Notes under the pieces: model-generated | Databases searched by the model: none | What the model was told of the DNA's origin: nothing | What the model saw: the letters and a program-made list of their open reading frames with translations, nothing else | Shown here: positions 905 to 62,627 of the stretch, in pieces | Position numbering within the stretch: position 1 is the first letter of the stretch | Layout of the letters: each line of letters starts with the position of its first letter | DNA from: Campylobacterales bacterium | GTDB lineage: Bacteria; Campylobacterota; Campylobacteria; Campylobacterales; Sulfurimonadaceae | Direction: 5' to 3' | NCBI GenBank assembly: GCA_038205935.1 | Contig: JBBRBK010000005.1 | Span: 4,704-68,703, forward strand | DNA length: 64,000 nt | Program-made: the position numbers and the translations under genes

Positions 905-916
905 CTTACATGTAAG
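905..916. repeat. CTTACATGTAAG palindrome in the divergent promoter region
   Basis: Exact 12-bp palindrome read in the intergenic region 794-981. Confidence 0.9.
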
Positions 917-981
917 GGTTTTTAAACCTCACCTAAAGCCAAAATAACATAAAATACGCATAATTAATTCAAGGAACTAAA

Positions 982-2220
982 ATGCCGTTTTCCAAACTGG
1001 GACTTTCACCAAAAATAGAACTAGCAGTTGCTAAAAGCGGTTTTACTACTCCGACACCTATTCAAGAAAAAGTGATTCCTCTTGTACTTGACGCTCAAGA
1101 TATTATGGCAAGAGCTCAGACGGGAAGTGGAAAGAGTGCCAGTTTTGTTCTACCTATCTTGGAGCTTTTATCTCGCAAACCTTATGAGGGAAAAGCGAAG
1201 ATAAAGGTGCTTGTTCTCACGCCGACACGCGAACTCACTTTACAAATTGCCGAGGCGTTTAATACCTTTGGAGCTTTTTTAGATAAAAAACCAAAAGTCG
1301 TCGGCGTTATCGGTGGGGAGGGGATTGGCGATCAGCTTTTTGAGATACAAAAAGGGTGTGATATCTTAGTCGCCACATCAGGAAGATTTCTCGATATCCT
1401 CTCTAAAAAGCAAATGAATCTTTCGCATTTGGAATTTTTTGTCCTTGATGAAGCAGATAAGATGCTTGATCTTGGATTTGCCGAAGAACTTGAACTCATC
1501 CTTGAAGCCATTCCACAAAAACGCCAAAATCTCCTTTTTTCTGCGACGTATCCACAAAAGATGCTTTCCATCGCTTCAAGAATTACACAAAGCGCCGTAG
1601 AAGTCAGTATAGAAAATGAAGAGCCAACAGTACAAAATATCACTCAGCGCGCCATAGAAGTCAACCACGAAAACAGAGGTCCACTTCTACGCCATCTTCT
1701 AAATACCAATAAATGGGAACTCGTGCTTGTTTTTATGTCTAGCAAAAGAGCTGCTGAAAACATCGCTCAAAAGTTTAAAAAGCACGGATTTAAAGCAGAA
1801 TCATTTCACGGTGATTTGGAACAAGAAGATAGAAATTACACCATTGACGCCTTTAAAGCAAAAAAACTCAATCTCCTTTTTGCCACCGATCTCGTGGCTC
1901 GTGGTCTTGATATAGAAAATATAGATTGTGTCATTAACTTTGACCTTCCACGCTCGCCAGCTGACTATATCCACCGCATCGGAAGAACTGCAAGAGCTGG
2001 AAAAAGTGGAACTGCCATCTCATTTGTGGGTCTTGAAGATGCTGAACACTTTCATTTAATAGAAAAACGCTCACAAATTAAACTTCGAAGAGAGCAGATA
2101 GAAGGTTTTGAGCTTGTCGGAGAACTGGTAAAAAAAGAAAAAGGCCCCGCTCCAGTAAAAGGAAAAGGCAAAAGTAAAAAAGACAAGTTGAGAGAAAAAG
2201 CGGCACAAGAGGGAAAGTAG
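982..2220 (+). CDS. DEAD-box ATP-dependent RNA helicase
   Basis: Helicase motifs read in order: AQTGSGKS (I), PTRELT (Ia), VLDEADKM (II), SAT (III), HRIGRTARAG (VI). Lys-rich C-terminal tail. Confidence 0.9.
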   Translation: MPFSKLGLSPKIELAVAKSGFTTPTPIQEKVIPLVLDAQDIMARAQTGSGKSASFVLPILELLSRKPYEGKAKIKVLVLTPTRELTLQIAEAFNTFGAFLDKKPKVVGVIGGEGIGDQLFEIQKGCDILVATSGRFLDILSKKQMNLSHLEFFVLDEADKMLDLGFAEELELILEAIPQKRQNLLFSATYPQKMLSIASRITQSAVEVSIENEEPTVQNITQRAIEVNHENRGPLLRHLLNTNKWELVLVFMSSKRAAENIAQKFKKHGFKAESFHGDLEQEDRNYTIDAFKAKKLNLLFATDLVARGLDIENIDCVINFDLPRSPADYIHRIGRTARAGKSGTAISFVGLEDAEHFHLIEKRSQIKLRREQIEGFELVGELVKKEKGPAPVKGKGKSKKDKLREKAAQEGK

Positions 2221-2330
2221 AGCTCCGAATTTTCATTAAGCTTTTAAGCTAATTTCACACCCATCAAACAAAAATTCCAACTCGTCTGAGGGCTCTTTAT
2301 AGAGAAGTGGACTATCTAAATCTATGTACT

Positions 2331-3166: not shown

Positions 3167-4435
3167 ATGCTTATACCAACAAATCTATTGCAAGACAAAA
3201 AAATTCTTTTAGGCGTCACTGGTTCTATCGCTATTTATAAGTCTCTCGAACTTATTCGTCTTCTTACAAAAGCGGGCGCAAACGTCAAAGTTGTGATGAC
3301 TGAAGCGGCGAAAAAGTTTATCACTCCTCTTACTTTTGAGACACTTTCTGGCAATAAAGTGCTTGATGAGCAGAGTGAATCTTGGGCGGACGATCATAAC
3401 CATATTAAAACAACTGAGTGGGCAGATCTTTTTGTCATCGCTCCAGCAAGCGCAAACACCATCGCAAAACTTGCAAACGCCATCGCTGATAATATGCTTC
3501 TTCAATGCGCCCTTGCCTATCCTGACAAGAAGATTGTAGCGCCCTCAGCAAACACAAATATGCTCAGCCATCCAATCACTCAAGCAAACCTCAAAATGCT
3601 TGGCATTGCACATTATGAGATTATCAAGACTCAGACAAAAGAGCTTGCATGTAAGACTGTCGGTGATGGCGCTATGGCTGAACCGATCGAAGTTTTTTGG
3701 CATATCGCTAAAGAGCTGCTTAAAGAGGATTTTTGGGAAGATAGACGCGTTATCGTCACAGGTGGCTCAACGGCTGAAAAAATAGATGATGTGCGTTATA
3801 TCTCAAACTTTTCAAGCGGAAAAATGGCTTCGGCTTTGGCTACGGCACTTTTTTGTAAAGGCGCGGATGTAAACCTCATCGCTACAAAATTTGATACTGA
3901 TTTGCCACTTGCCATGCATAAAATCGATGTAGATTCAACAGAGGAGATGCTTGAGTTTGTCGTAGACTCTGTGCGTATCGCAAAAAAAGGAAAACTCTCT
4001 AAACCTTCACTCATCCTAGATAGACCAATAGAACTGATCCAAAAAGAGCCATATCTATTTATGGCGGCAGCTGTGAGCGACTATATTCCTGTATTTGCTC
4101 AAAGTGGCAAACTCAAAAAAGAGATGCTCGGCAAATCGTGGAATATAGAGATGAAACAAAATATCGATATATTAAAAACTATCAATAAAGATGGGATTAA
4201 AGTTGTAGGGTTTAAAGCAGAGATGGACGCTCAAAACGCTAAAGAAAATGCAACTTCAATGCTAGAAAGAAAAGGTGTTGACGCGGTTTGCCTCAATATT
4301 TTAACAGACGATAAAAGCTTCGGAACTGATGATAATGAGGTAGAATTTATTACTCAAAATGGTTCAGCTTTACTTCCTAGAGCAGATAAACTTTCCCTCT
4401 CATTTGAGATACTTAAAAACGCAAAAGAGCTATGA
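3167..4435 (+). CDS. coaBC: Bifunctional phosphopantothenoylcysteine decarboxylase / phosphopantothenate-cysteine ligase
   Basis: N-terminal flavoprotein motif KKILLGVTGSIAIYK. CoaB motif ISNFSSGKMA. Length 422 aa. Confidence 0.9.
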   Translation: MLIPTNLLQDKKILLGVTGSIAIYKSLELIRLLTKAGANVKVVMTEAAKKFITPLTFETLSGNKVLDEQSESWADDHNHIKTTEWADLFVIAPASANTIAKLANAIADNMLLQCALAYPDKKIVAPSANTNMLSHPITQANLKMLGIAHYEIIKTQTKELACKTVGDGAMAEPIEVFWHIAKELLKEDFWEDRRVIVTGGSTAEKIDDVRYISNFSSGKMASALATALFCKGADVNLIATKFDTDLPLAMHKIDVDSTEEMLEFVVDSVRIAKKGKLSKPSLILDRPIELIQKEPYLFMAAAVSDYIPVFAQSGKLKKEMLGKSWNIEMKQNIDILKTINKDGIKVVGFKAEMDAQNAKENATSMLERKGVDAVCLNILTDDKSFGTDDNEVEFITQNGSALLPRADKLSLSFEILKNAKEL

Positions 4436-5184
4436 GCTTTTCCATTAGTGAACTTTCAAATATCTTAAAACTTACCTCAAGCTCTCCTTCTGAGGCAAAA
4501 GCACTTATAAAACTACTCAGTGTTGATGTTACAAAATCTTTGGGTGATGGGAAATATCTTCTTGAAACTCCAACAAAAAGCTTGACTGCTTTTTCTGATA
4601 AACCTCTCCAAGAGAGCTCAAAATATTGGGTAGAACTGGGCACGAAGCCACATGAAACTCCCATAATCTCAAAATTTCACCAACAGCCTAAAATCCTCCA
4701 AGAACTTCAAAATCTGTCTATAAAATTTGATACAAAAGAGCTTCATGAACTTCTAAGCGGTAAAAAAACGATAGAGAGTTTTAAAACAACTCTTTTGGAT
4801 CATCTCTCATCTGCCACGTCAAAAGATGATTTTACTCAAGTTTCAAATCTTCTTTTATCACTTATGCAAAATACTCTCACAATTCCACTTCTTTTTGGGC
4901 ACTCTTTTGGGGTTATTCAAATGAAAAAACGCTACAATAAAACCACAAAAAAATCCCAGCTGGATTTTTACGCAGCCCTTCTAAAACTCGGTCCGATATC
5001 GGGAACTATTATGTTACTAGAAGATGAAATTTTTATAGATTTAGACGTGGCATTTACAACAACTAAACTTTTTTTGGAAGCAAATTTGAAAGATATCAGA
5101 TACAAAATAACCTTACATGTAAGAGAAAATATAGACGCTCTTTATCAGTTTCACACAAACTCACTCTTGGATATCAACGCATGA
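4432..5184 (+). CDS. Hypothetical protein (weak resemblance of the C-terminal part to FliK/Flg_hook-type domains)
   Basis: 250-aa ORF with ATGA overlaps to coaBC upstream and uppS downstream. No motif I can assign with certainty. Confidence 0.5.
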   Translation: MSFSISELSNILKLTSSSPSEAKALIKLLSVDVTKSLGDGKYLLETPTKSLTAFSDKPLQESSKYWVELGTKPHETPIISKFHQQPKILQELQNLSIKFDTKELHELLSGKKTIESFKTTLLDHLSSATSKDDFTQVSNLLLSLMQNTLTIPLLFGHSFGVIQMKKRYNKTTKKSQLDFYAALLKLGPISGTIMLLEDEIFIDLDVAFTTTKLFLEANLKDIRYKITLHVRENIDALYQFHTNSLLDINA

Positions 5185-5858
5185 AACAAGCCTTACATGT
5201 AGCTATTATCATGGATGGAAATGGCCGTTGGGCTGAAGCACGTGGAGAAAAAAGAGTCAAAGGACATGAAGCGGGAGCGAAAATAGTTCGAGAGATCACG
5301 AAATTTTGCTCTAAACATAAAGATATAGAACGTCTCACTTTGTACGCTTTTTCTACAGAAAACTGGAAACGCCCTCGCCTTGAAGTTGAATTTTTAATGA
5401 AACTGCTTGAGCGTTACCTTAAAAATGAGCTCGAAGAGTATGTAAAAAATAATGTTAAATTTGAAGCGATCGGCGATATAAGAGCTTTTTCAAAATCACT
5501 GCAAAAACTAATCAAAAAAGTGGAAGAAAAAACATCTCACTGCGATGGACTTGTGCAAAGTCTAGCGCTCAATTACGGTGCTCATGATGAGATTCTGCGA
5601 GCAATCAATCACCTTAAAAATGAAAAAAAAGATATCACAGAAGAGATGTTTTCTAACGCCCTTGACTGTAAAGATGAAGTAGACATTATGATCCGAACCG
5701 GCGGAGACCATAGAATATCAAACTTTTTACTTTGGCAGCTCTCTTATGCAGAACTTTTTTTCATTGATACACTCTGGCCAGACTTTAATACAGAAGAACT
5801 TGGCAAGATAATAGACCAGTTTAACATAAGAGAACGCAGATTTGGAGGACTTAACTAA
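5181..5858 (+). CDS. uppS: Di-trans,poly-cis-undecaprenyl-diphosphate synthase
   Basis: IIMDGNGRWA, FSTENWKRP and RTGGDHRISNFLLWQLSYAELFF motifs. Confidence 0.92.
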   Translation: MKQALHVAIIMDGNGRWAEARGEKRVKGHEAGAKIVREITKFCSKHKDIERLTLYAFSTENWKRPRLEVEFLMKLLERYLKNELEEYVKNNVKFEAIGDIRAFSKSLQKLIKKVEEKTSHCDGLVQSLALNYGAHDEILRAINHLKNEKKDITEEMFSNALDCKDEVDIMIRTGGDHRISNFLLWQLSYAELFFIDTLWPDFNTEELGKIIDQFNIRERRFGGLN

Positions 5859-6676
5859 TGGAATTATTTTTACCTTTTCTCTTTGGCACTCTTTTGGGTT
5901 CTTTTTTAAATGTCCTGATCTTGCGGATTCCTCGTGATGAAAACATTGCATTTCCAGCATCTCACTGCTTTACATGTAACACACCGCTGAAGCCTTGGCA
6001 CAATATTCCGCTTTTTTCATGGCTTTTTTTACGCGGAAAATGTGCATTTTGCAAAGCGCCTATCTCTGCACAATATCCCATCATAGAACTTTTAAGCGGT
6101 TTGATCTTTGTTACCATCGCATACAAAATGGGCATCTCGCCTTCCTCTGCATTTGTGGCACTTACTTTTTTGATCTTACTCGCTCTTTCTATGATAGATT
6201 TTAGATATAAAATGGCACCTGACAGTCTCAATCTTCTAGCCATTTTATTTGCTATACTTGGTGCATACTCGTTTTCAATGTTACTGAATAATCTCCAAAA
6301 TGCCTTACTTTTTGCCGGAGGTTTTACCTTGCTTCGCTTTTCACTTTCTTACTTATTGACTTCTATAGCTCATACTAAAGCAAAAAAAACGCAAACTTCA
6401 TGGACAAAAAACTATCATACCTATCCATTTATCGAAGCGATGGGAGAAGCTGATATTATGGTGGCCGCAACGATGGGAGCTCTTTTAGGTGTGAAACTCG
6501 CCCTTGTAGCTATCTTTGTCGCGGCTGTTTTAGCTTTGCCTGTTATGCTCTATGTTCAAGGCAAAAGTCTTGAAGAGCAAAGAGTTCCTTTTATCCCGTT
6601 TTTAGCGATGGGAACCTTTATAACCTATCTTTTAGATTCACAAATCTACGCTTATTTGGAAACACTTTATGCATAA
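5858..6676 (+). CDS. Prepilin peptidase (A24 family, PilD-like)
   Basis: N-terminal CFTCNTPLKPWHNIPLFSWLFLRGKCAFCKAPIS (CxxC...CxxC). Catalytic Asp contexts IDFRYKMAPD and GEADIMV. Polytopic membrane protein. Confidence 0.8.
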   Translation: MELFLPFLFGTLLGSFLNVLILRIPRDENIAFPASHCFTCNTPLKPWHNIPLFSWLFLRGKCAFCKAPISAQYPIIELLSGLIFVTIAYKMGISPSSAFVALTFLILLALSMIDFRYKMAPDSLNLLAILFAILGAYSFSMLLNNLQNALLFAGGFTLLRFSLSYLLTSIAHTKAKKTQTSWTKNYHTYPFIEAMGEADIMVAATMGALLGVKLALVAIFVAAVLALPVMLYVQGKSLEEQRVPFIPFLAMGTFITYLLDSQIYAYLETLYA

Positions 6677-7688
6677 ACTAAGACGCTATATCATTAAGAA
6701 TTTTTCAATTCTTTTTCTATCAATTTTCTTACCACTTTTTGCCATCGCTTCTGTAATCTTTATGATAAAACTAGCAACTTACACGGCCATTATCCAGCTT
6801 ACATTTTTTGAGATGGTCAAACTCTATCTTTTCGTATTACCTGAGATTCTTTTTTATACTCTGCCAATCACATTTTTCATCTCTGCGACGCTCACGCTAT
6901 TTCGACTTTCAAACGATAACGAGATGATCGTGATCTTTGCACTTGGGATAGAACCAGATTTTATTATCAAAACACTTCTTAAACCTGCGATTCTTTTGTG
7001 TGTTTTACTGAGTTTTGATTTTTTCGTCCTTTTTCCCCATGCAACGGTACTTTCAAGCAACTTTGTTTCATACAAAAAAAGCGAAGCAAAATTCAATATC
7101 AAAGCTTCTGAATTTGGAAATAACTTTGGCAACTGGCTTTTGTATGTAGGACATAATAATCCAGATGGAACTTTTGGCGATGTCTTTTTATTTAACAAAG
7201 AAAAGAAAAATGAGATTTTACTAAACGCAAACAAAGCAGAGGTCATTAACCAAAACGGAATCCTAAAACTCAAACTGAGCACCGGCAATGGATACAGTTA
7301 TACGCAAGATACTCTTTCACAAATCGACTATCAAACTATCGTCATCAATGATATGATGAAAACAGATCTGAGTACCTACAGAAAACCTCTTGAGTACTGG
7401 CTCAGCAGTGATAGAGCTGATAGTAAACGTCATATGTTTATCACTGATGTACTCTTAAGTATTTTTCCTATCATCTCTCTCTTTTTTGTAGCGGCTATGG
7501 GGATCGTGCATGCAAGACACCAAAAAAGTTATGTCTATCTCGCGCTCTTCCTTGCTATCGTGATCTATTATGGCGCAACAATCGGGCTTATCGATGTGAT
7601 TGGTTTTTATACTATTCCTGTAGTATTTTTCTTATGGCTGATTGCGACCTATATTATCTATCAAAGAAAGATTGTAGCTCGCTTTTGA
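6669..7688 (+). CDS. LptF/LptG family LPS export permease
   Basis: N-terminus KLRRYIIKNFSILFLSIFLPLF. Three N-terminal TM segments, a periplasmic beta-rich middle and three C-terminal TM segments, which is the YjgP/YjgQ architecture. Confidence 0.75.
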   Translation: MHKLRRYIIKNFSILFLSIFLPLFAIASVIFMIKLATYTAIIQLTFFEMVKLYLFVLPEILFYTLPITFFISATLTLFRLSNDNEMIVIFALGIEPDFIIKTLLKPAILLCVLLSFDFFVLFPHATVLSSNFVSYKKSEAKFNIKASEFGNNFGNWLLYVGHNNPDGTFGDVFLFNKEKKNEILLNANKAEVINQNGILKLKLSTGNGYSYTQDTLSQIDYQTIVINDMMKTDLSTYRKPLEYWLSSDRADSKRHMFITDVLLSIFPIISLFFVAAMGIVHARHQKSYVYLALFLAIVIYYGATIGLIDVIGFYTIPVVFFLWLIATYIIYQRKIVARF

Positions 7689-10404: not shown

Positions 10405-10511
10405 TCAAAACCCTTGTAATAATTTTGCTTATTATAGCCCTTTATCGTAAACCTATAAGTATGGTATCAACTATTTGCGTTATAATTTCGAAAAAATTAT
10501 GGAGACTATTT

Positions 10512-11639
10512 TTGGAAAATCTAAGTTACTACGAAATATTACAGATCGAAAAAAATGCAGATCAGACGATCATCAAAAAAGCCTATAGAAGACTTGCTAA
10601 AGAATACCATCCAGATAAAAATCAGGGTAACGCTGAGGCTGAGACAAAATTCAAATTTATCAATGAAGCTTACCAAACTTTAAGTGACGAACAACAAAGA
10701 GCAGTTTATGATAGATACGGCAAAGAAGGCCTTCAAGGCGGCGGCGGTAGAGGTCGCAGTTCTGGTATGGGCGGTTTTGAAGATCTTGGAAGTATTTTTG
10801 AAGAGATGTTTAACGGTGGCTTTAGTGGCGGTGGGCAAAGACGTTCACGCGCGGATATGGACAAATACCCTCTTGATATGAACGTCGATATGAGTATCAG
10901 CTTTAACGAGGCTGTCTTTGGATGTGAAAAAGAGATCAATTTCAAATATAAATCATCTTGTTCTAGCTGTAAAGGCACAGGTGCAAAAGATGGGAAACTC
11001 TCTACATGTAGTCAGTGTCAAGGCAAAGGTCAGGTCTACGTACGTCAAGGCTTTATGACTTTTTCTCAAACTTGTCCTGTATGTCAAGGAGAGGGCACAA
11101 AGCCATCTGAAAAATGTGGTGATTGTTCTGGTCATGGCTATACAGAAATCAAAGAGAGCGTAAAGATTAATGTTCCAAAAGGGATAGATAACGGAAATCG
11201 TTTAAGAGTCGGCGGACGTGGAAATATGGGTAAAGGTGGCCGCCGTGGTGATCTTTATGTAACATTTAGTGTTAAAGCCGACAAACACTTCCAGCGAAAT
11301 GACAATGATGTTTATATCGAAATCCCTGTATTTTTTACTCAGGCGATCACTGGAAATGAGATCACTATTCCATCTCTCACAGGCGAGTTAAAACTCCAGC
11401 TTGATGTAGGAACTCGTGATAAACAGCATTTTAAATTTAGAAATGAAGGTATTGAAGATGTTCACGGACACGGCAAAGGCGATCTTATTGCCCAAGTCAA
11501 TATTACCTATCCTAAAAAGCTAAACGACAACCAAAAAGAACTTCTCTTAAAACTTCAAGAGTCTTTTGGCATCGAGTCAAAACCGCATGAAGGTGTGTTG
11601 GATTCTGCTATTGAAAAGATGAAAAAGTGGTTTAAGTGA
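10512..11639 (+). CDS. dnaJ: Molecular chaperone DnaJ
   Basis: J-domain YYEILQIEKNADQTIIKKAYRRLAKEYHPDKN, a G/F-rich linker and four CxxCxGxG repeats (CSSCKGTG, CSQCQGKG, CPVCQGEG, CGDCSGHG). The ORF-track start 10389 overlaps the divergent gene. An in-frame TTG at 10512 follows GGAG by 7 nt and gives a DnaJ-length protein. Confidence 0.9.
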   Translation: MENLSYYEILQIEKNADQTIIKKAYRRLAKEYHPDKNQGNAEAETKFKFINEAYQTLSDEQQRAVYDRYGKEGLQGGGGRGRSSGMGGFEDLGSIFEEMFNGGFSGGGQRRSRADMDKYPLDMNVDMSISFNEAVFGCEKEINFKYKSSCSSCKGTGAKDGKLSTCSQCQGKGQVYVRQGFMTFSQTCPVCQGEGTKPSEKCGDCSGHGYTEIKESVKINVPKGIDNGNRLRVGGRGNMGKGGRRGDLYVTFSVKADKHFQRNDNDVYIEIPVFFTQAITGNEITIPSLTGELKLQLDVGTRDKQHFKFRNEGIEDVHGHGKGDLIAQVNITYPKKLNDNQKELLLKLQESFGIESKPHEGVLDSAIEKMKKWFK

Positions 11640-11983: not shown

Positions 11984-12001
11984 AATAGAGTCTCTTTTGT
12001 A

Positions 12002-12700: not shown

Positions 12701-12705
12701 TATAC

Positions 12706-15700
12706 TTACTTTTCAGTCACTTTTCTATTTCTAAAAGCAATGACAATAAGTGCAAATACTATGAAGTATGTTATAGGCACAAAATCAGGGATAGGCACTG
12801 GATCACCTTTTGCATATGAGTGCATACCTGCAAGATAGTAATTTACTCCAAAATAGGTCATTAAAACTGAAGTAAATGCAAGCAATGAAATAACACTGTA
12901 ACTAAATGGCGTATAAAGTGCTTTTATAAATCTAATGTGTACAACAACTGCGTACACTAAAATCGTCACAAGAGCCCAAGTCTCTTTTGGATCCCAGCCC
13001 CAGTAACGTCCCCAGCTCTCATTTGCCCAAACTCCACCAAGGAAATTTCCAACAGTCAGCATCGCAAGACCGATAAGTAAGCTCATCTCATTGATGGCAT
13101 TGAGTTCTAAAATTGAGCTGTTAATACGCGCTTCATTTTTAGAGTTTCTAAGTGCAAAAAGAAGTATTGTAATAAATCCAAGCAGTGCTCCAAGACCAAG
13201 GAAACCATAACTCGCCGTAATCATAGAAACGTGGATGTCAAGCCAGTATGATTGTAAAACAGGTACAAGGTTTGTGACCTTTGGATCCATCCAGCTTAAA
13301 TGCGCTACAAAAAGGATCAAACCGGCTAAGATAGATGTCGAAGCCAAAGTAATCGGTGAATGTTTTGAGAAGATAAATCCTGCCAAAACTGTCGCCCAAG
13401 CGATATAAACCATAGATTCAAAACCATTTGACCATGGTGCGTGACCGGAGATGTACCATCTCACCGCAAGACCCAAAGTATGAGCAATAAAAAATGCTAT
13501 CAATAAAAACATTGCTGATTTGCTCATTATACTAAGGTTGAATGATGGTTTGAGTATTTTCACAAAAGAGAAACTCAAAAGTACAAAACCAATCAAGAAA
13601 TAAAGTGGCCACAATATTTCAAAAATATTTGAATGATTATAAAGTATTTCTAAACGGATTTTAGTTTTATCTGGATAAACAGCCGCTCCATAAAATTTTT
13701 GAAAGCTTTTAACTCCATCAAGTGCAGTATTTGCTTTTGCCCAGTTTCCTGTTTTGATGGCATCATCAATACTTGAAAAGTAAATAACTGCTGCGTCTTT
13801 TACTTTGCCTGCAGACTCTTGATCAAAAGTTTGAAGCGCTTCTATCGTATCAACCCACTTTTGATTGACATCATTTGGTTTTGGCCAAATTTTAATAATT
13901 GAGCCAGTATAGACCATGAAAGCGACATTTACACGCTCATCCACTGACAAGACTGCTTTATCAAATTGATTTCTGTCTTTTGGTGCTTTACGTGAAGACT
14001 CTTCTGCATACTGTGCAAGTTTATAACCTTCCATATTTGCCGGAGACTGGAAAAACTCTGAAAATGAAGCATATTTTGCATCTTCAGGAAGTCCAATAAA
14101 TTTGTTGATCTCTTTATTTGAAGTACGGATCATTTTGATCTCACGCCATGCATCAGGGCGTATCATCATCCCAAGAACGATCTGGTTTGCATCAAGACCT
14201 AAAATAGAATTACTTCTACTAATCTTATTTACAATCTCTGTTGAGAGCGTATCAAGAGGTTTCATTCTTCCATCGCTATCTTGAACGATAAGTTCGCCAA
14301 AAAGTGCTGCATGTGCTTTATCAAAAGATTTTACAGTTTTGATCAGAGGATTGACTTCATCTGCATAAGAGGAAGTATATGAAAAAGCAAAAGCAAGCGC
14401 TAAAAATGCCGCAACTGCTCTACTTGATGCAAGTTTTTTTGCTTTGTTGGAGAGCTTTGCAAATCTACCATTTGGCATCAAAAGTGAGCCAAAAAGTCCA
14501 ACAGCAAGCATTAAGTAACCAATATATGTAACCGTTGTCCCTGGATCATTGTTCACAGAAAGTACTGTTCCTTTTTCATCTTGGTCATAAGAAGATTGGA
14601 AAAATCTATATCCTCTATGATCTAAGATATGATTCATATAGATTTTAAAAGGTTCATTCATATTTTGTTCCTTATCTATCAAAGTAACCTCACTTGCATA
14701 AGAAGAAGGTGACATAGAACCTGGATAACGTGAAAGTTCAAAATGATTTAACTTCAATGCAAATGGAAGAGTAAGAATCTTTGGACCATAATTTACAGAA
14801 ACATTAACACCATCGACCATCACAGTCTGGTCATCGCCAAGCTCATTCTTTTTACCATAAACAAGTACTGTTTTAGACTCTTTAGCATCACTTATTTCAA
14901 AGCGAAGGGCATCAGTACCGCCACCCTTTTTACCTTTTACATTTGGATCACTCACAACCTCTTTACTTGCTAATGGATAAAACTCACGTAAAACGAAGTT
15001 TGTTGCATTGTAAGTATTGAGAGTGCGTGTTGCAAACTCTTCTTTTGTGCTCGCTTGTGAAACACCACTGCTTTTGTCATCCATCTTCAAGTATTTTAAA
15101 TCCATCGGATGATTTATCATCAGTTTGCCATTTTCGACGAAAAGTTTGACAACTGGTTTGTCAAATTTTTTCCCTGAATCAAAATCAAGAACAAGATCAC
15201 CAGCTTCAAAGAAATCACCTTTTGACAACTGAACACTTTGACCTTGACCATCTAATGTCACCATCATATTTGCTATTGGTGTGCCATTTTTATCTTCAAC
15301 AAGTTTTACAATAGCATCTGGAATGTACTCCACAAGCTTTACATGTAGAGTCTTTCCGCCCGCTTGAATCTCTTTGTCAAAACTGTTATGTGTTCTTTTT
15401 GAAAGATAGAGCATCGTAGAATCTTCTACACTTCCTGCTTTAATGTTAACATAAGGCTCCGCACTTTGCATCATCGAAGATGTTTGTCCTTCGCGAATAT
15501 GCATCATACCCTCAAATCCAGAGTAGCGAGTAACTGCGGCTCCTATGAGAATAACAAAGAATGAAACGTGAAATGTAAGAACAAGAATTCTCTCTTTTCT
15601 GTACATCTTAAAATTAATGATGTTCATAAAGAGGTTCAGAGCAAGAAGTCCTAAAAGTACCTCGAACCACCTAGTGTTATAGATATCGGCTTTTGCCGTC

Positions 15701-36921: not shown

Positions 36922-36932
36922 CTTACATGTAG
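36922..36932. repeat. CTTACATGTAG motif copy in the divergent intergenic region
   Basis: Read directly. Lies in the 293-bp AT-rich spacer between the DUF4395/Rrf2 operon and the efflux operon. Confidence 0.9.
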
Positions 36933-42498: not shown

Positions 42499-42536
42499 CT
42501 CTTACATGTAAAGCTTTTTTAGTCTACATGTAAGAG
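42499..42536 (+). terminator. Hairpin made of two inverted copies of the TACATGTA motif, 8 nt after the RND stop
   Basis: CTCTTACATGTA (42499-42510) and TACATGTAAGAG (42525-42536) are exact reverse complements, separated by a 14-nt loop AAGCTTTTTTAGTC. Followed by CTCTCATTTT. Confidence 0.45.
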
Positions 42537-48132: not shown

Positions 48133-48150
48133 CTCCTTACATGTAAGGAG
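48133..48150 (+). terminator. 18-bp perfect palindrome CTCCTTACATGTAAGGAG (hairpin + UUUUCU) between pgm and the USP-like gene; the 3' arm is the downstream Shine-Dalgarno
   Basis: Read directly. AAGGAG (48145-48150) lies 6 nt before the ATG at 48157. The hairpin has a 7-bp stem and a CATG loop, followed by TTTTCT. Confidence 0.5.
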
Positions 48151-57811: not shown

Positions 57812-59731
57812 CTATACCTTCTTCAAATAGACCACGCTGAGTGGCGCAAGCGTTACATGTAAGCTGTTTTTTCTTCCGTGGCACTCTTTGGCTTGTGACT
57901 TTATTGGAGTTGTATTTGTCTCTGTGTAGCCGCCAAAAGATTTGTCATTGGAGTTAAAAATCTCGACATATTCCCCACTTGTGGGCACACCTAAAACATA
58001 ACCGATATGCTCTTTGTCTGAGAAGTTACAGATGATGATAAGAGGCTTTTCATTTCTCGCACCTTTTCTTATAAACGAGATCACATTCGCACTATAATCG
58101 TTTTCATCTATCCAAGAAAAACCCTCTTTTTCTACATCATTTCTGTGCAGTGAAGGTTCTATTTTATATAGGTGATTGAGCTCTTTGAGAACGTTTTGCA
58201 CGCCTTTATGACCATCATAGGCTAGTAAATGCCAGTCCAAACTTCGCTCAAAATTCCACTCCGCAAACTGTGCGAACTCTCCACCCATAAACAGCAATTT
58301 TTTTCCAGGATGCGCATACATCAAAGAAAAAAGTGCACGAAGATTTGCGAACTTTTTATAATTATCTCCAGGCATCTTGTTAACCAAAGAGCCTTTCATA
58401 TGGACCACTTCATCGTGACTAAGCGGCAATAGATAGTTTTCGTTGTACATGTAAACAAAACTAAAAGTCAAATGCTGGTGATGATGTTGGCGAAAGAGCG
58501 GATCGAACTTCATATATTTTAAGATGTCATGCATCCAACCCATATTCCATTTATAGCCAAACCCTAGTCCACCATCTGCAACTGGGCGGCTCACCATCGA
58601 GTAGTTTGTGGATTCCTCTGCAAACATCATAATGTCGTTGTATTCTTCATACACCGTGGAGTTTAACTGTTTTAAAAACTGTACAGCGCCGCGGTTGACG
58701 TTGCTTCCATCTTCATTTGGAATCCATTCGCCCTCTTCTCTTGCATAATCAAGATAAAGCATCGAAGCCACAGCATCCACTCTTATGCCATCAAGATGGT
58801 AATATTCGAGCCAAAAAAGTGCCGAGCTTACTAAAAACGCGCGCACTTCATTTCTATCATAATTAAAAATTGCACTGCCCCATTCTGGATGATAGCCCTT
58901 TCTTGGATCTTTATGTTCATACAAACATGACCCGTCAAAATTTGAAAGTCCATGTCCATCTGTCACAAAGTGTGAAGGCACCCAGTCGAGAATGACGCCG
59001 ATGCCGTTGTTATGCAAAATATCCACAAAACTCATAAACTCGCTTGGTGAGCCATAACGCGATGTCGGAGCAAAATATCCCGTCGTCTGATAACCCCAAG
59101 AACCCTCAAACGGATACTCGGTGATAGGCATAATCTCCACGTGAGTAAAGCCCATATTTTTCACATACTCAGCTAATTCATTTGCGAGCTCTGTGTAAGT
59201 TAAAAAGCGATTTTCCTCTTCAACTTTTCTTCTCCATGAACCAAGATGCACTTCATAAATCGAGACTGGAGCTTTATGGGAGTTATGTTTATGGCGTGTT
59301 TTCATCCACTCATCATCACCCCAAACATAGCCATCAAGCTTACAAACTCTTGATGCTGAACTTGGTGCGACTTCTGCAAAAAAAGCGTATGGATCAGCCT
59401 TATCGGAGCTTACATGTAAGGCATCTGAAGTGATATGATATTTATATGTCATCCCCTCATCTACGTCTTCAATGAAGCCTTCCCAGATGCCAGAACCATC
59501 ATCTCTATTTTTTAACGGATGAGAAGTCGTGCTGTAATCGTTAAAATCAGCTCTTACATGTAAAGCGTTTGCATTTGGAGCCCACACTGCAAAATAAACT
59601 CCATCTTTACCATCTCTTTGCATAAAATGTGAGCCCAAATGGTTGTAAAGTTTTGCGTGTGTTCCCTCTTTAAAAAGATAAATATCAAGATCAGAAAAAA
59701 GTGTCACGTCATAAAAAGTTTGATATTTCAT
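57812..59731 (-). CDS. glgB: 1,4-alpha-glucan branching enzyme
   Basis: GFTHVEIMPITEYPFEGSWGYQTTGYFAPTSRYG, GVILDWVPSHF, DGIRVDAVASMLY. Confidence 0.93.
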   Translation of the reverse strand: MKYQTFYDVTLFSDLDIYLFKEGTHAKLYNHLGSHFMQRDGKDGVYFAVWAPNANALHVRADFNDYSTTSHPLKNRDDGSGIWEGFIEDVDEGMTYKYHITSDALHVSSDKADPYAFFAEVAPSSASRVCKLDGYVWGDDEWMKTRHKHNSHKAPVSIYEVHLGSWRRKVEEENRFLTYTELANELAEYVKNMGFTHVEIMPITEYPFEGSWGYQTTGYFAPTSRYGSPSEFMSFVDILHNNGIGVILDWVPSHFVTDGHGLSNFDGSCLYEHKDPRKGYHPEWGSAIFNYDRNEVRAFLVSSALFWLEYYHLDGIRVDAVASMLYLDYAREEGEWIPNEDGSNVNRGAVQFLKQLNSTVYEEYNDIMMFAEESTNYSMVSRPVADGGLGFGYKWNMGWMHDILKYMKFDPLFRQHHHQHLTFSFVYMYNENYLLPLSHDEVVHMKGSLVNKMPGDNYKKFANLRALFSLMYAHPGKKLLFMGGEFAQFAEWNFERSLDWHLLAYDGHKGVQNVLKELNHLYKIEPSLHRNDVEKEGFSWIDENDYSANVISFIRKGARNEKPLIIICNFSDKEHIGYVLGVPTSGEYVEIFNSNDKSFGGYTETNTTPIKSQAKECHGRKNSLHVTLAPLSVVYLKKV

Positions 59732-61206
59732 AATGACGGCTTTTGTGGTTCAAAACCTAAGATATAGTTATACACCGCTTCATAACTTTTTGCCGAATCA
59801 TCCCAACCAAAATGCTGTTTCATCGCTCTCTCCTGCATATCTAGAAAACTTTTTTTATCTTTATTATAGATATTTACCGCCCATAAAACTGTGTAATACA
59901 AAGCCTCTTGGGTAGCATCATCAAACTTAAATCCGTTTCCATTTTCATGGCGTTCATCAAAGTTTTGGATCGTGTCATCGAGTCCGCCCGTTGCTCGAAC
60001 TATCGGCAATGTCCCATAACGAAGACTGTAGATCTGGTTGAGTCCGCAAGGTTCAAAAAGTGAGGGCATCAAGAACATATCACTTCCCGCTTCAATGCCG
60101 TGTGCAAGCGCATCAGAATAGCCTACATGTAAACCAAAGTTACTTCGATGCGTTGCAACATCGCTGAAAAATCCCTCAGCCCACTTCTCGCCAGCTCCGA
60201 GCATCACAATCTGGATATCCATATCAAGCAGTCCATGGATGATCCCGGCGATAAGTCCTATCCCTTTTTGTTCTGCAAGACGTCCGACAAAACCGATAAG
60301 CGGCACATCATCACGTACTTCGAGATTAAAATGACGCTGTATATCACGCTTACATGTAAGCTTTCCAGCCATATCACCCACATCAAATTTTTGGGCTATC
60401 AGATTGTCCACTGATGGATTCCATTCATCATAGTCCACGCCATTTAAAATCCCAAAAAGCTTTTCACTGTGTGCTCGGATGTGGCCTTCAAGCCCAAAAC
60501 CAAACTCACGCGTTTGAATCTCCTCGGCATATTTTTTTGAAACGGTCGTGATTGCATCAGCGTGCATAATGCCGCCTTTTAAAAGGTTCACACTATTAAA
60601 ACTCTCAAATTCACGTGCATTAAAATGCTCCCAACCCACTTCCATGAGATCCATCAGATTTTTATGAAAATGTCCTTGGTGTTGAAGATTGTGGATCGTT
60701 AAAACAGATTTTGCATTTGCAAAGTCATGCACAAACCTTGTCTTTGCCAAAAGAGGCACAAGCGCAGTATGCCAGTCATTTGCATGAATGATATCAGGCG
60801 TAAAGGAGAGCATCTTACATAGCTGTAAAGCCGCTTTTGAAAAGAAAACAAAACGGTTGCCATTATCTTCATAAGAACCATCATGATCTTCATACAAGCC
60901 GCCTCTTCCAAAATAACGCTCATAGTCTATAAAATAGATAGGAACATCATTTCCAGGCAAAGTTGATGTATAAACTCCAGCCCAAAGCTCTCCCATCGCA
61001 CCCATCGGCACGCCTAAAGGAGTTTCAAGTTTTGTAAGTTTTGATGGATCTATCTTATAGTATCTTGGCATCACGACGATGATATTATGCCCAAGAGCTT
61101 TAAGTGCTTTTGGAAGTGCGCCGGCAACATCTGCGAGTCCGCCTGTTTTTGCAAATGGCACAACTTCTGAAGCCACAAATAAGATATTTAATTTTCTTTT
61201 TTTCAT
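59728..61206 (-). CDS. glgA: Glycogen synthase
   Basis: LFVASEVVPFAKTGGLADVAGALPKAL. C-terminal PSLFEPCGLNQIYSLRYGTLPIVRATGGLDDT. Confidence 0.9.
   Translation of the reverse strand: MKKRKLNILFVASEVVPFAKTGGLADVAGALPKALKALGHNIIVVMPRYYKIDPSKLTKLETPLGVPMGAMGELWAGVYTSTLPGNDVPIYFIDYERYFGRGGLYEDHDGSYEDNGNRFVFFSKAALQLCKMLSFTPDIIHANDWHTALVPLLAKTRFVHDFANAKSVLTIHNLQHQGHFHKNLMDLMEVGWEHFNAREFESFNSVNLLKGGIMHADAITTVSKKYAEEIQTREFGFGLEGHIRAHSEKLFGILNGVDYDEWNPSVDNLIAQKFDVGDMAGKLTCKRDIQRHFNLEVRDDVPLIGFVGRLAEQKGIGLIAGIIHGLLDMDIQIVMLGAGEKWAEGFFSDVATHRSNFGLHVGYSDALAHGIEAGSDMFLMPSLFEPCGLNQIYSLRYGTLPIVRATGGLDDTIQNFDERHENGNGFKFDDATQEALYYTVLWAVNIYNKDKKSFLDMQERAMKQHFGWDDSAKSYEAVYNYILGFEPQKPSL
60348..60361. repeat. 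14-bp palindrome GCTTACATGTAAGC inside glgA
   Basis: Read directly. Encodes KLTCKR on the minus strand. Confidence 0.9.
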
Positions 61207-61217
61207 ATTTTATCCTT

Positions 61218-62627
61218 TTATAAAAGTAAAGCCGCGTGGACTGATACAAGGCTCTCGTAGATTTTAAGATATGCTAAGGCACTTCGTTCAAATGAGAAAT
61301 CGCATTGCATATTAAACCTTACCATTGACTCAAACTGCTTTTTCTCTTTTTTAAGAGTCAAAGCCCTTTTTATTGCAAGTAAAAGTGCTTGCTTACTCTG
61401 CTTTTTAAAGAGTATCCCTTGTCCGCATTTGGATTTATCTTCGTGAACACTGTCTTTTAATCCTCCCGTTGCATGTACGATGGGAATCGTTCCATAACGC
61501 ATCGCAATCATTTGGTTGAGACCGCAAGGTTCAAAGCGTGATGGCATCAGCAAGAAATCTGCCGCGGCGTAAAGCTGATGTGATAAGACCTCATCATAGC
61601 CGTTTAAAAACTCAAGATTTTCATGCTTTAATGAGAGAGCTTGCAACTGCTCCGCAAATCTGGCCTCGCCCTCGCCGATGATAAAAAGATTGAGCTTATT
61701 TTGTAATAATGGCTCCATCGATTCGAGGACAAGATCGATCCCTTTTTGTTCAACTAGCCGAGTGATCATGACAAATAAAGGACGTCTAGGATCTTTGAGT
61801 TTTGAAGTTTTGTGCAAAGCAACTTTGTTTTGATATTTTCCCTCTACATTTTCATAAGACGCGAAAAGTGCTTTATCGATACGAGGATCAAAAACGACTT
61901 CATTGATACCATTTAAAATACCGCTGAGTTTTGCTTTGTGATGTGTTAAAAACCCTTCAAGCCCGCATCCAAACTCCGATGTGAGTATCTCTTTTGCATA
62001 GCTTGGACTCACTGTTGTCACTGCGTCACTGTACGCGATGCCCGCTTTTAAAAAGTTCACCTTGCCATAAAACTCTAAGCCATCCATTGTGAAATATTTT
62101 TCATCTATCCCGAGCTTTTTAAGTGTCTCTTTTTCAAAAACACCTTGATACGCAAGATTATGGATAGTTAAAACTGTTTTGAGCAGTAATTTCTGCTCTT
62201 TTACAAAAAGTGCACACAAAGAAGTATGCCAATCATTAAGATGTAAAACCTCTACATGTAAGCTCAAAGCAAGAGCGACAACACCTTTGCAAAAGATTGC
62301 AAAACGAAGATCATTATCTGCGTAATCTCCATCTTTATCACAGTAAAGAGTTTGGGTTTCACTTAAAAGCGGTGCTTCTATAAAAAAGATCTTATGAGTA
62401 TTTTGAAGTTTTGTATACACATTGATCTTGTATTTTTCATCCCTTAGACTTACTTCAAAACTCTGGGATAATTGAAGATCTTTTTTACTCATAAAACCAT
62501 ACAAAGGGATCACACTATAAAGCTCTGTATAAGCACTTAACGCTCTAGGCAGTGCATCTGCCACATCTGCGAGTCCGCCGCTTTTTGCATATGGAAATAT
62601 TTCACTTGAAGCAAAAAGAATCTTCAT
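61218..62627 (-). CDS. glgA: Glycogen synthase, second paralogue
   Basis: ILFASSEIFPYAKSGGLADVADALPRAL. PSRFEPCGLNQMIAMRYGTIPIVHATGGLKDS. Confidence 0.85.
   Translation of the reverse strand: MKILFASSEIFPYAKSGGLADVADALPRALSAYTELYSVIPLYGFMSKKDLQLSQSFEVSLRDEKYKINVYTKLQNTHKIFFIEAPLLSETQTLYCDKDGDYADNDLRFAIFCKGVVALALSLHVEVLHLNDWHTSLCALFVKEQKLLLKTVLTIHNLAYQGVFEKETLKKLGIDEKYFTMDGLEFYGKVNFLKAGIAYSDAVTTVSPSYAKEILTSEFGCGLEGFLTHHKAKLSGILNGINEVVFDPRIDKALFASYENVEGKYQNKVALHKTSKLKDPRRPLFVMITRLVEQKGIDLVLESMEPLLQNKLNLFIIGEGEARFAEQLQALSLKHENLEFLNGYDEVLSHQLYAAADFLLMPSRFEPCGLNQMIAMRYGTIPIVHATGGLKDSVHEDKSKCGQGILFKKQSKQALLLAIKRALTLKKEKKQFESMVRFNMQCDFSFERSALAYLKIYESLVSVHAALLL

Follow-up and report, generated by a model that had tools for sequence, protein, structure and literature searches.

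The 64-kb stretch of DNA analysed here (the window) belongs to the genome of a sulfur-oxidising member of the Sulfurimonadaceae (Campylobacterota), and its gene content is housekeeping only. Dispersed through its genes and intergenic spaces is a palindrome, YTTACATGTAAR, with the core TACATGTA (Table 1). A recount gave 33 copies of ACATGT, 27 of TACATGTA, 23 of YTACATGTAR and 16 of the 10-mer TTACATGTAA, identical to the counts and to all 16 TTACATGTAA starts of an earlier, sequence-only reading, whose seven extended palindromes also matched their description upon re-examination. Its position 23153 for one copy of GTACATGTAA was a typing error, the correct start being 23143.

Table 1 Copies of the palindrome and the structures formed by them in the 64-kb window; L001 to L004 are labels of compared loci.
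Sequence	Position	Gene or setting	Residues	Remark
TTACATGTAA	906..915	intergenic, upstream of DEAD-box helicase gene		centre of hairpin 898-923
TTACATGTAA	5113..5122	250-aa ORF (4432-5184 +)	TTA-CAT-GTA = L-H-V	
TTACATGTAG	5193..5202	uppS (5181-5858 +)	L-H-V	
TTACATGTAA	5970..5979	prepilin peptidase gene pilD (5858-6676 +)	xTT-ACA-TGT-AAx = T-C	
TTACATGTAA	7940..7949	truA (7634-8410 +)	L-H-V	retained in L002
CTACATGTAG	11002..11011	dnaJ (10389-11639 +)	T-C	retained in L002, L003; gone in L001
TTACATGTAG	15339..15348	ccsBA (12706-15813 -)	L-H-V	retained in L001, L003, L004
TTACATGTAA	17458..17467	polA (15936-18698 -)	F-T-C-K	
TTACATGTAA	17647..17656	polA	L-T-C-K	within 14-bp palindrome 17645-17658
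GTACATGTAA	23143..23152	polysaccharide deacetylase gene (22831-23580 -)	TAC-ATG-TAC = Y-M-Y	
TTACATGTAA	23792..23801	GNAT/FemAB-like gene (23577-24533 -)	L-H-V	sole perfect 10-mer of 16-kb island
GTACATGTAA	28101..28110	727-aa ORF (26997-29180 -)	Y-M-Y	
ATACATGTAA	30926..30935	525-aa ORF (30260-31837 -)	Y-M-Y	
TTACATGTAA	36414..36423	DUF4395 gene (36292-36735 -)	L-H-V	
TTACATGTAG	36923..36932	intergenic, divergent genes either side		
TTACATGTAA	42502..42511	intergenic		left arm of 42499..42536 hairpin
CTACATGTAA	42524..42533	intergenic		right arm of 42499..42536 hairpin
stem-loop CTCTTACATGTA ... TACATGTAAGAG	42499..42536	convergent genes either side		two motif copies; terminator-like
TTACATGTAA	48137..48146	intergenic, pgm / 268-aa ORF		
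18-bp perfect palindrome CTCCTTACATGTAAGGAG, then TTTTCT	48133..48150			scored terminator-like
TTACATGTAA	49023..49032	P-type ATPase gene (48960-51635 +)	L-H-V	within 14-bp palindrome
TTACATGTAA	49504..49513	P-type ATPase gene	T-C	
TTACATGTAA	57853..57862	glgB (57812-59731 -)	L-H-V	
GTACATGTAA	58445..58454	glgB	Y-M-Y	
TTACATGTAA	59410..59419	glgB	L-H-V	
TTACATGTAA	59554..59563	glgB	L-H-V	
CTACATGTAA	60123..60132	glgA (59728-61206 -)	L-H-V	
TTACATGTAA	60350..60359	glgA	T-C	within 14-bp palindrome
CTACATGTAA	62252..62261	second glgA paralogue (61218-62627 -)	L-H-V	

The strong over-representation claimed in that reading was confirmed by the recount together with shuffled and low-order Markov backgrounds. 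Dinucleotide shuffles of the window gave expectations of 0.69 for TACATGTA and 0.16 for TTACATGTAA, the observed 27 and 16 copies being reached in none of them, and Markov models of orders 1-4 predicted 0.9-1.5 and 0.11-0.27 copies, respectively. Relative to shuffles and low-order models the enrichment amounts to 22-31-fold for TACATGTA and ~100-140-fold for TTACATGTAA (overall 18-140-fold across shuffles and Markov orders 1-4 in the window), and TACATGTA is the 8-mer with the highest observed/expected ratio (O/E) in the window, 31-fold under an order-3 model. The maximal-order Markov comparison, which the reading had proposed as a check on itself, formally returned ratios near 1 (27 observed vs 23.7 expected for TACATGTA and 16 vs 16.2 for TTACATGTAA), yet is uninformative because the 7- and 9-mer sub-words are almost confined to the motif. 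CATG as a whole falls short of expectation in the window (172 observed vs 243 under the maximal-order model). Allowing up to one mismatch, TTACATGTAA has 29 matches in the window vs 4.1 expected; 10 of the 13 one-mismatch variants are changed at the outermost base only, and the three internal variants correspond to chance level. No flank similarity past ~12 bp was observed among the copies, and the spacing of the 27 window copies is indistinguishable from random (CV 0.99, with low power at n = 27).

Within genes, the word leaves its imprint on the encoded proteins. Leu-His-Val (LHV) occurs 12 times in the window, a 4.3-fold excess over the 2.76 predicted from amino-acid frequencies, and all 12 tripeptides are encoded by the motif (YTACATGTA), as had been claimed for a count of 13; codon usage predicts codons of this type for 6% of LHV. 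The third frame goes unused, as claimed, by the full 10-mer only; the TACATGTA core lies there four times, encoding Tyr-Met-Tyr. These copies (23143, 28101, 30926 and 58445) are exactly the sites with an outer G or A in place of T, the outer base at 23143 being altered because TAA is a stop codon. The full 10-mer is shunned only in the frame giving that codon, and the motif is used in all three reading frames as well as in intergenic DNA.

Comparison of polA genes extends this picture. At positions that read F-x-S-R, L-P-A-K or L-N-V-P in motif-negative relatives, motif-positive genomes contain TTT-ACA-TGT-AAG (F-T-C-K) or TTA-CAT-GTA-Axx (including L-H-V-T). A conserved Pro of the polA product is replaced in motif-bearing genomes, supplying the tenth base of the word and therefore pointing to pressure on the DNA word. 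The copy at 17458 recurs in the same codons of 11 polA genes, with all three motif-positive clades represented, and at one polA position TTA-CAT-GTA was reached by the same five-substitution change in two separate clades. The motif-encoded LHV excess and these orthologue substitutions lend strong support to the earlier proposal, pressure on the DNA word rather than on the protein, and carry it further: a directional pressure at the DNA level, acting across the genome, puts the word in place and maintains it, even altering amino acids.

Sixteen related polA loci likewise show enrichment of the word, at 0.2-1.1 copies per kb and 33-55% GC, with 114 copies vs 4.8 expected in the pooled loci (5 vs 0.03 at L019) and equal enrichment at 55% GC. 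Other clades of the Sulfurimonadaceae lack it, as do Sulfurovum, Arcobacter and Helicobacter, equally AT-rich relatives among them, and a strain-specific 16-kb island in the window is motif-poor. The view that the word is nothing specific, arising from base composition or codon usage, from selection for Leu-His-Val or Thr-Cys peptides or as copies of a miniature mobile element, could draw on the AT-rich genome with its frequent TTA, CAT, GTA, ACA and TGT codons and on the maximal-order ratio of ~1. However, the 18-140-fold enrichment, its equal strength at 55% GC, the absence of the word from equally AT-rich relatives, the use of all frames and of intergenic DNA, the LHV codons (6% predicted, 100% observed) and the dissimilar flanks are all contrary, and this explanation was rejected as scarcely credible. 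The palindrome YTTACATGTAAR is a dispersed, hyper-abundant word and a lineage trait in a large part of the Sulfurimonadaceae; neither a mobile element nor base composition nor a peptide motif accounts for it. No prior description of it was found in the literature searched.

Neutral molecular drive, in which biased repair or gene conversion turns near-cognates into a functionless palindrome through a very-short-patch (VSP)-like or site-specific repair activity tied to a methyltransferase or nuclease, appears unlikely. The parallel five-substitution change in polA would agree with it, as would the somewhat depleted one-mismatch neighbours of TACATGTA (71 vs 127 expected in motif-positive DNA; 62 vs 74 in motif-negative DNA) and the chance level of internal 10-mer variants although perfect sites are still decaying, as observed in comparison of orthologous loci. 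However, no specific depletion is seen for the deamination neighbours TATATGTA/TACATATA (0.68 in motif-positives, 0.48 in motif-negatives), and outside the motif ACATGT reaches the frequency of motif-negative relatives (~0.09 vs 0.11 per kb), so that copies seem to have been added, not converted. VSP effects at E. coli CCWGG are well under two-fold, compared to 20-140-fold here, and the enriched unit of 10-12 bp exceeds known repair contexts. Orthologous sites are retained in 13 of 22 cases vs 8.0 expected, a suggestive conservation above control that favours selection, as for HIP1 (PMC5861425).

The five copies previously assigned to intergenic DNA were borne out (5 of 27, P = 0.007 given ~4.6% non-coding DNA), and 11 of the 114 copies in pooled motif-positive DNA are intergenic (P = 0.004), a 2-4-fold enrichment between genes in window and pool. 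The stem-loop at 42499..42536 has a folding energy of -16.6 kcal/mol on the + strand (z-score -5.3) and -19.1 kcal/mol on the - strand (z-score -4.7), the right half of the 48133-48150 palindrome provides the AAGGAG Shine-Dalgarno of the gene starting at 48157, and extended hairpins made of motif pairs occur at gene ends, both in the window and in many metagenome contigs. Dispersed copies were also seen on two temperate-phage contigs, at a density like that of the host. Phage contigs further hold local intergenic arrays of this palindrome, operator- or iteron-like, so proteins reading the word plausibly exist. Such arrays, the perfect palindrome with its sharp core, the intergenic enrichment and the copies on a ribosome-binding site and at gene ends would suit an abundant dimeric protein (nucleoid-associated, segregation or global regulator) that binds without methylation or DNA exchange. 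Yet ~80-90% of the copies are genic, with arbitrary positions, and the density of 0.2-1.1 per kb is far above that of known chromosome-organising palindromes such as parS, matS and Noc- and SlmA-binding sites; copies showed no promoter association, and a regulator would hardly warrant the amino-acid cost in polA, making this binder quite improbable.

By operational criteria (O/E and density), the earlier label of a HIP1-like highly iterated palindrome (HIP) is supported, the values lying above the thresholds of O/E >16 and >0.2 per kb (Xu et al. 2018, PMC5861425); the word is thus a HIP in this sense and shares several features of DNA uptake sequences. HIP1 (GCGATCGC) and other HIPs of cyanobacteria have in common with it an octamer core that, like its extensions to 10-12 bp, is palindromic (Elhai 2015, PMC4390886; PMC5861425), at least 20-fold enrichment at 0.2-1 per kb, use of every permitted coding frame and of non-coding DNA, a lineage distribution with sporadic loss, depletion in recently acquired DNA, orthologous sites kept above control (suggestive for TACATGTA) and an embedded classical Type II methyltransferase target. 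One-off variants are frequent for HIP1 (PMC4390886) and exceed controls in conservation (PMC5861425), whereas those of TACATGTA are unenriched. The present word further differs in being AT-rich and from another phylum, with no methyltransferase found for it in ~0.65 Mb of motif-positive DNA and no quasi-periodic spacing in 64 kb. TACATGTA is also clearly in excess intergenically and in terminator-like hairpin pairs, which to our knowledge has not been reported for HIP1.

A HIP-type chromosome-maintenance site, that is, a conserved orphan methyltransferase target selected site by site inside the cell and independent of uptake, is possible but rather doubtful, whether it marks strands for discrimination or nicking in repair, stimulates recombination in the manner of Chi or marks replication timing. 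It would account for the embedded CATG and ACATGT, the HIP-level abundance, the suggestive site conservation and the dispersed phage copies. Other Campylobacterota loci contain different hyper-abundant palindromes, TTGGCCAA and GCGATCGC, which likewise embed Type II targets, and the phage arrays recall methylation-site clusters at origins (PMC4752239). The methyltransferase missing from ~0.65 Mb, the irregular spacing in the window and the lack of an obvious role for intergenic and hairpin-pair enrichment speak against it. Several Campylobacterota, moreover, lack MutS1/MutL mismatch repair. Palindromic recognition sequences of restriction-modification systems are contained in the word (PciI, ACATGT; NlaIII/HpyI, CATG), but such targets are normally avoided, whereas this word is in massive excess and ACATGT outside it is not depleted relative to motif-free genomes of the same kinship.

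The other two suggestions of the earlier reading, an uptake signal and the target of a methyltransferase or DNA-binding protein, are candidates only. As the likeliest explanation we tentatively favour a watermark that identifies self or kin DNA during natural transformation and is read by a dimeric protein. The two-fold symmetry, sharp 8-bp core and embedded CATG/ACATGT suggest a homodimeric reader such as a Type II methyltransferase or a receptor. Incoming word-bearing DNA, probably methylated, would be preferentially bound, taken up or recombined; that bias with homologous recombination would accumulate the word wherever coding constraints permit, and the same drive may yield hairpin pairs at gene ends. 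Neisseria DUS, Pasteurellaceae USS, methylated RAATTY of Campylobacter jejuni and the role proposed for HIP1 would serve as the working analogy.

Random-like spacing, palindromic symmetry and unenriched internal one-mismatch variants count against an uptake tag, as does the host-like copy density in temperate phages, unpredicted by purely transformation-driven accumulation. Uptake sequences and HIP1 are reported to be more regularly spaced, and in its internal one-mismatch variants the present word differs from USS as well as from HIP1. A receptor was not found in the window, which offers PilD only, and ~0.65 Mb of motif-positive DNA gave no plausible palindrome-specific DNA methyltransferase; its one Type III mod gene and Eco57I-like enzyme are not expected to read the palindrome. 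No report of natural transformation in Sulfurimonadaceae was found in the literature searched. Neisseriaceae DUS and Pasteurellaceae USS share with the word a unit length of 10-12 bp, a density below one copy per kb (PMC3868556), family-wide conservation regardless of GC, a proteome bent to the word, inverted pairs as gene-end hairpins and sparseness in strain-specific islands, but are asymmetric and pilin-read (ComP in Neisseria), whereas the present word is a perfect palindrome and a candidate tag only. According to PMC10046745, citing Beauchamp et al. 2017, C. jejuni, of the same phylum, imports only DNA with a methylated palindrome, RAATTY, with a proposed dependence on the orphan methyltransferase CtsM for self/foreign discrimination at uptake; RAATTY is a degenerate 6-mer, frequent (~one per 60 bp) because the genome is AT-rich, whereas TACATGTA is a long, specifically amplified word. 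HIP1 methylation leads to higher transformation efficiency, and HIP1 abundance follows pilus and competence genes (bioRxiv 10.1101/2024.09.10.611283; 10.64898/2026.06.24.733823); beside these precedents, the prepilin peptidase gene, the one competence-type gene of the window, is counted as support.

Exact searching of the window returned all the counts on which the sequence-only reading had based its claim of over-representation, namely 33 copies of ACATGT, 27 of the palindromic 8-mer TACATGTA, 23 of YTACATGTAR and 16 of the full 10-mer TTACATGTAA, and all 16 starts recorded for the 10-mer were correct; GTACATGTAA was displaced and starts at 23143, not at 23153 (SCTTACATGTAAGS, another search pattern, has few specified bases). 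In dinucleotide-preserving shuffles 0.69 copies of the 8-mer and 0.16 of the 10-mer were expected, and no shuffle reached the observed counts, while Markov models of orders 1-4 gave expectations of 0.9-1.5 and 0.11-0.27, respectively. TACATGTA had the highest observed/expected ratio of any 8-mer in the window (31-fold under order 3), the next ranks being taken only by its own overlapping sub-words, and the over-representation amounted to 20-140-fold across models. A maximal-order Markov model, proposed in the same reading as a refuting check, yielded ratios of approximately 1 (27 vs 23.7 and 16 vs 16.2), formally speaking against the claim; we set this check aside, since nearly all occurrences of the 7- and 9-mer sub-words fall inside the motif, which renders such a ratio uninformative. 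When one mismatch to the 10-mer was allowed, 29 matches were found vs 4.1 expected; the outermost base alone was changed in 10 of the 13 one-mismatch variants, and the three internal variants correspond to chance level.

Under a second-order Markov model the 27 copies of TACATGTA in the window compare with 1.21 expected (22-fold, 0.42 per kb), and the 114 copies in the pooled motif-positive loci with 4.83 expected (23.6-fold). Highly iterated palindromes (HIPs) were defined operationally by Xu et al. 2018 through an observed/expected ratio of >16 under a second-order Markov model and >0.2 copies per kb. The Sulfurimonadaceae word (22-24-fold; 0.42 per kb in the window) exceeds both values and, as in the HIP class, the enriched unit is palindromic and at least an octamer. 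It is therefore a dispersed, hyper-abundant palindrome by the cyanobacterial thresholds, differing in its sequence, TACATGTA, from HIP1 proper, which is GCGATCGC.

Motif-positive DNA totalling 265 kb yielded 137 ACATGT sites, whose alignment revealed symmetric conservation that stops about 6 bases from the centre, the positions flanking ACATGT being, outward, T (85%), T (69%) and Y (70%). The unit is thus YTTACATGTAAR, a symmetric logo without longer shared flanks, and the same logo was obtained on metagenome contigs. A MITE- or REP-like element, with a unit of at least 20 bp confined to intergenic DNA, was excluded because conservation ends at ~12 bp without longer shared flanks; approximately 80-90% of the copies lie inside genes, unlike REP/MITE repeats.

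The coding imprint proposed earlier was found in all three reading frames of the window. Twelve of the 27 sites are read as TTA-CAT-GTA (L-H-V), six as xTT-ACA-TGT-AAx (T-C) and four as TAC-ATG-TAx (Y-M-Y), the remaining five being intergenic, and the pooled polA loci contain 60 T-C, 35 L-H-V, 8 Y-M-Y and 11 intergenic sites. The occurrence of the word in several frames of coding DNA as well as in non-coding DNA rules out a peptide motif. Leu-His-Val occurs 12 times in the window, one fewer than the 13 first tallied, vs 2.76 expected from amino-acid frequencies; that every instance is motif-encoded was confirmed, 12 of 12 using YTACATGTA where codon usage predicts 6%. The Y-M-Y sites are precisely the four copies with a non-palindromic outer base, which departs because TAA would there be a stop codon; coding constraint therefore blocks the tenth base and not the core. 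In the PolA alignment, a first position reads [FIL]-T-C-K/R via TT-ACA-TGT-AA in 11 motif-positive genomes of all three clades and F-(A/K/G/S)-S-R in motif-negative relatives; a second reads L-H-V-(K/R/T) via TTA-CAT-GTA-A in five positives of two clades and L-P-A-K in the others; and a third reads L-H-V-T/R in four genomes and L-x-[VI]-P in every other genome, the need for A as tenth base costing an otherwise invariant proline. The 10-mer is thus the unit under pressure, and this pressure, which repeatedly installed a cysteine, outweighs moderate protein constraint. Composition by-product, peptide selection and mobile elements were all excluded as explanations of the word.

Since the window is ~95% coding, its five intergenic copies represent an excess (P=0.007), as do the 11 of 114 copies found in the ~4% non-ORF sequence of the pooled positive loci (P=0.004). 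Three intergenic structures involving the motif are listed in the table, two of them terminator-like, and many metagenome contigs contain motif pairs with stems extended past the motif and followed by T-runs. The spacing of the word is indistinguishable from random, the coefficient of variation of the gaps being 0.99 vs 0.97 under random placement, a comparison of low power with 27 sites only. Four of the 26 gaps are near-equal (5496, 5488, 5579 and 5613 bp, for 17647/23143, 30926/36414, 36923/42502 and 42524/48137), which is probably coincidence given the random overall spacing. One segment lacks any motif copy (see table), and the adjoining glgB-glgA-glgA cluster contains 1.13 copies per kb.

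Features of the window, of related loci and of viral contigs, with their coordinates
Feature	Location	Context	Observation
Hairpin from two motif copies	42499-42536	Between convergent genes	Terminator-like; -16.6 / -19.1 kcal/mol on the two strands, z -5.3 / -4.7
18-bp palindrome with T-rich tail	48133-48150	Overlaps AAGGAG ribosome-binding site of next gene	Terminator-like hairpin
Hairpin	898-923	Upstream of helicase gene	
Prepilin peptidase (PilD)	5858-6676	Sole competence-type gene in window	Pfam
Probable strain-specific island	18713-35013	Between polA and HDOD gene	16.3 kb, GC 31.4%; polysaccharide, efflux and unknown genes
Motif-free segment	49600-57800	ATPase 3' part and MBOAT/AlgX-type O-acetylation genes	8.2 kb; P ~0.03
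RND transporter	39193-42491	Two abutting ORFs	ACR_tran 2-498 in first, 526-1016 in second (Pfam)
Type III restriction-modification methylase (mod) gene	L001:11696-13153	Adjoins sulfatase gene	Position held by truA in window
Viral array	L291:11430-11660	Same viral contig as L282:1204-1431	
Viral array	L268:358-545		
Viral array	L275:3875-4093		
Viral array	L298:915-953		
Dispersed viral copies	L269:1-14527	35% GC	0.41 per kb (pair-selected, no denominator)
Dispersed viral copies	L283:1-12173	47% GC	0.57 per kb (pair-selected, no denominator)

A scan with the polA product against one genome per species placed the window in Sulfurimonadaceae (Campylobacterota), with the loci L001-L003 as nearest relatives (92-94% PolA identity). 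The same word was recovered in 16 polA loci of Sulfurimonadaceae-like genomes at 0.18-1.07 per kb and 33-55% GC, the extreme case being a Sulfuricurvum contig of 55% GC with 5 copies in 4.7 kb vs 0.03 expected. Twelve other Sulfurimonadaceae loci contained one copy in total, and the word was essentially absent from all Sulfurovum, Arcobacter/Halarcobacter, Wolinella, Helicobacter and Nitratiruptor loci sampled, equally AT-rich ones included. Motif-bearing loci fall into three clades and one singleton on the PolA tree, and the motif-free ones make up one large clade, two deep branches and one pair that sits within the positives, a pattern pointing either to an old family trait that would have been lost several times or to one gained several times. 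No replacement word was found in 149 kb of the motif-negative sister clade. Searching metagenome contigs for motif pairs gave 120 loci, of which 64 were motif-rich beyond the selecting pair, and tblastn of these motif-rich contigs against Campylobacterota loci was compatible with, though not decisive for, an origin in this phylum.

Comparison with relatives at ~88.5% nucleotide identity showed that 3 of 4, 4 of 10 and 4 of 4 window sites are kept, and 2 of 4 at 74% identity, where 8-mers as a whole, used as control, were retained at empirical rates of 0.41-0.43 and 0.11, respectively, in these alignments. Overall retention was 13 of 22 vs 7.96 expected (P ~0.02), the comparisons being non-independent and L002 alone showing no excess. 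One polA site is common to three clades, and no site was found in the relatives at aligned positions where the window has none. In L002, aligned with 5939-18712 and 35014-44381, roughly half of the window's sites are gone and the motif is less dense than in any other close relative (0.18 per kb); L002 may, from these small numbers, be a lineage with relaxed pressure. L001 and L003 keep 7 of 8 window sites.

The 16.3-kb segment between polA and the HDOD gene (see table) is missing from the four loci L001-L004, where both flanks adjoin, and is probably a strain-specific island. It contains one perfect 10-mer vs 5.1 expected at the density of the remaining window; recently acquired DNA therefore holds few copies of the motif. 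The one-mismatch neighbours of the 8-mer show a mild depletion (0.56 of expectation in positives vs 0.84 in negative relatives). The neighbours TATATGTA and TACATATA, expected from C-to-T deamination, have observed/expected ratios of 0.68 in positives and 0.48 in negatives and are not below other neighbours. A product of VSP-type biased repair was rejected, as its signature of singled-out deamination neighbours was not observed, and a neutral drive linked to repair in general we hold to be very unlikely as the origin of the word. Copies of ACATGT that do not belong to the motif occur at the frequency seen in negative relatives. Avoidance of a restriction target was ruled out, the palindrome being over-represented rather than under-represented.

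Pfam annotation identified the window as a housekeeping region encoding a DEAD-box helicase, coaBC, uppS, prepilin peptidase, lptF/G, truA, dnaJ, ccsBA and polA, as well as RND efflux, serA, rpsA, pgm, a P-type ATPase, MBOAT/AlgX, glgB, two glgA paralogues and galT. The RND transporter is divided between two ORFs, through either a natural split of the pump or a frameshift. Among all 50 window genes (Pfam) and the 10 unknown ORFs (NCBIfam), PilD was the sole competence gene, and neither a DNA methyltransferase nor a restriction enzyme was detected; the determinant of the motif therefore lies outside the window. In ~0.65 Mb of motif-positive DNA, a catalytic-motif regex and Pfam retrieved nothing beyond one Type III mod gene and one Eco57I-like enzyme, both rejected as unlikely readers of a palindrome. 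The mod gene of L001 is a strain-specific insertion, as truA occupies its position in the window.

The two-fold symmetry of the word and its embedded CATG/ACATGT would fit an enzyme or receptor that reads it as a homodimer. The word also resembles the uptake sequences of Neisseriaceae (DUS) and Pasteurellaceae (USS) in being family-wide at 0.18-1.07 per kb whatever the GC content and in its proteome imprint, intergenic excess and hairpin pairs at gene ends, although DUS and USS are asymmetric, occurring equally on both strands, and the word is a perfect palindrome. Uptake sequences of this type are 9-12-mers with a density of roughly 0.3-1 per kb. The passage of PMC10046745 citing Beauchamp et al. 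2017 states that C. jejuni, of the same phylum, imports only DNA with methylated RAATTY. In Synechococcus PCC 7002 transformation efficiency is raised by methylated HIP1, and pilus and competence genes correlate with HIP1 abundance (bioRxiv 10.1101/2024.09.10.611283; 10.64898/2026.06.24.733823). On account of these precedents, the symmetry and the uptake-sequence features, we rank first, albeit tentatively, the reading that the word would serve as a kin-DNA tag for transformation. Counting against it are the lack of a determinant gene in the ~0.65 Mb of motif-positive DNA, the palindromic form unlike that of DUS/USS, the random spacing (of low power), the internal one-off variants, which are not enriched, and the dispersed, host-density copies on two bona fide temperate-phage contigs. 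An intracellular site for maintenance or recombination, of the HIP type, is an unlikely alternative despite the HIP-like abundance of the word. The m5C motifs reported for S. denitrificans are without CATG-type sites, to which the method used is blind.

A scan of viral contigs for the 14-mer gave 51 matches, none at host-like density, and a scan for motif pairs gave mostly local arrays together with the two temperate-phage contigs. In the arrays (see table), 3-6 copies lie within ~40-230 bp of intergenic DNA in an iteron- or operator-like arrangement, unlike the dispersed pattern of the host. These local arrays are a separate phenomenon, and they suggest that proteins reading the word exist; that the host copies themselves serve an abundant dimeric protein as scattered sites of binding appears highly improbable to us. 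L269 and L283, scanned jointly, matched PHROGs for terminase, portal, tail fibre J, integrase, SSB and lysis genes; of these matches, only tail fibre J is tied to one contig, L269. The viral results favour none of the models over the others.

Full-text literature searches found no link between Sulfurimonas or Campylobacterota and this word, an uptake sequence or a HIP, and no report of competence in Sulfurimonas; the HIP literature found concerned cyanobacteria only. Mechanism aside, a hyper-abundant palindrome of the HIP kind is thus new for these bacteria as far as the literature searched goes. The function of HIP1 has been under debate for 30 years, and an independent, equally extreme palindrome in another phylum offers a second system in which uptake tag, methylation-guided repair or recombination and neutral drive can be tested, made useful by its different word, by motif-free related lineages and by sister lineages with other palindromes. 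Its presence or absence within one family suits phylogenetic profiling for the responsible gene. The word could open the way to transforming Sulfurimonas and Sulfuricurvum, dominant in the environment but genetically intractable, and is a sensitive marker for contig binning and for recently acquired DNA in these genomes. Sequence-specific DNA uptake is, to our knowledge, firmly established for no more than two or three bacterial families. It is conceivable, if rather doubtful, that in the free-living, chemolithoautotrophic Sulfurimonadaceae a long and perfect palindrome, probably methylated, acts as a kin signal in transformation and that lineage-specific hyper-abundant palindromes (TACATGTA; TTGGCCAA; GCGATCGC) recur in Campylobacterota. 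If true, HIPs and uptake sequences would both be expressions of a single widespread mechanism, and HIP1 research would gain an independent comparative system.

Hyper-abundant palindromes with lineage-specific words may recur across Campylobacterota, since the lineages of two further loci, L024 and L067, carry other ones. In L024:1-22445, from a Campylobacterales MAG of 48% GC, TTGGCCAA occurs 17 times vs 0.50 expected from shuffles (0.76 per kb) and embeds GGCC/TGGCCA, classical Type II targets. The HIP1 word GCGATCGC is enriched in two unrelated loci and occurs 10 times vs 1.42 expected in L067:1-11546 and six times in L066, both from termite-gut Helicobacteraceae MAGs, a cyanobacterial word in non-cyanobacterial genomes, and a further polA-bearing locus, L068, contains GATCGATC seven times.
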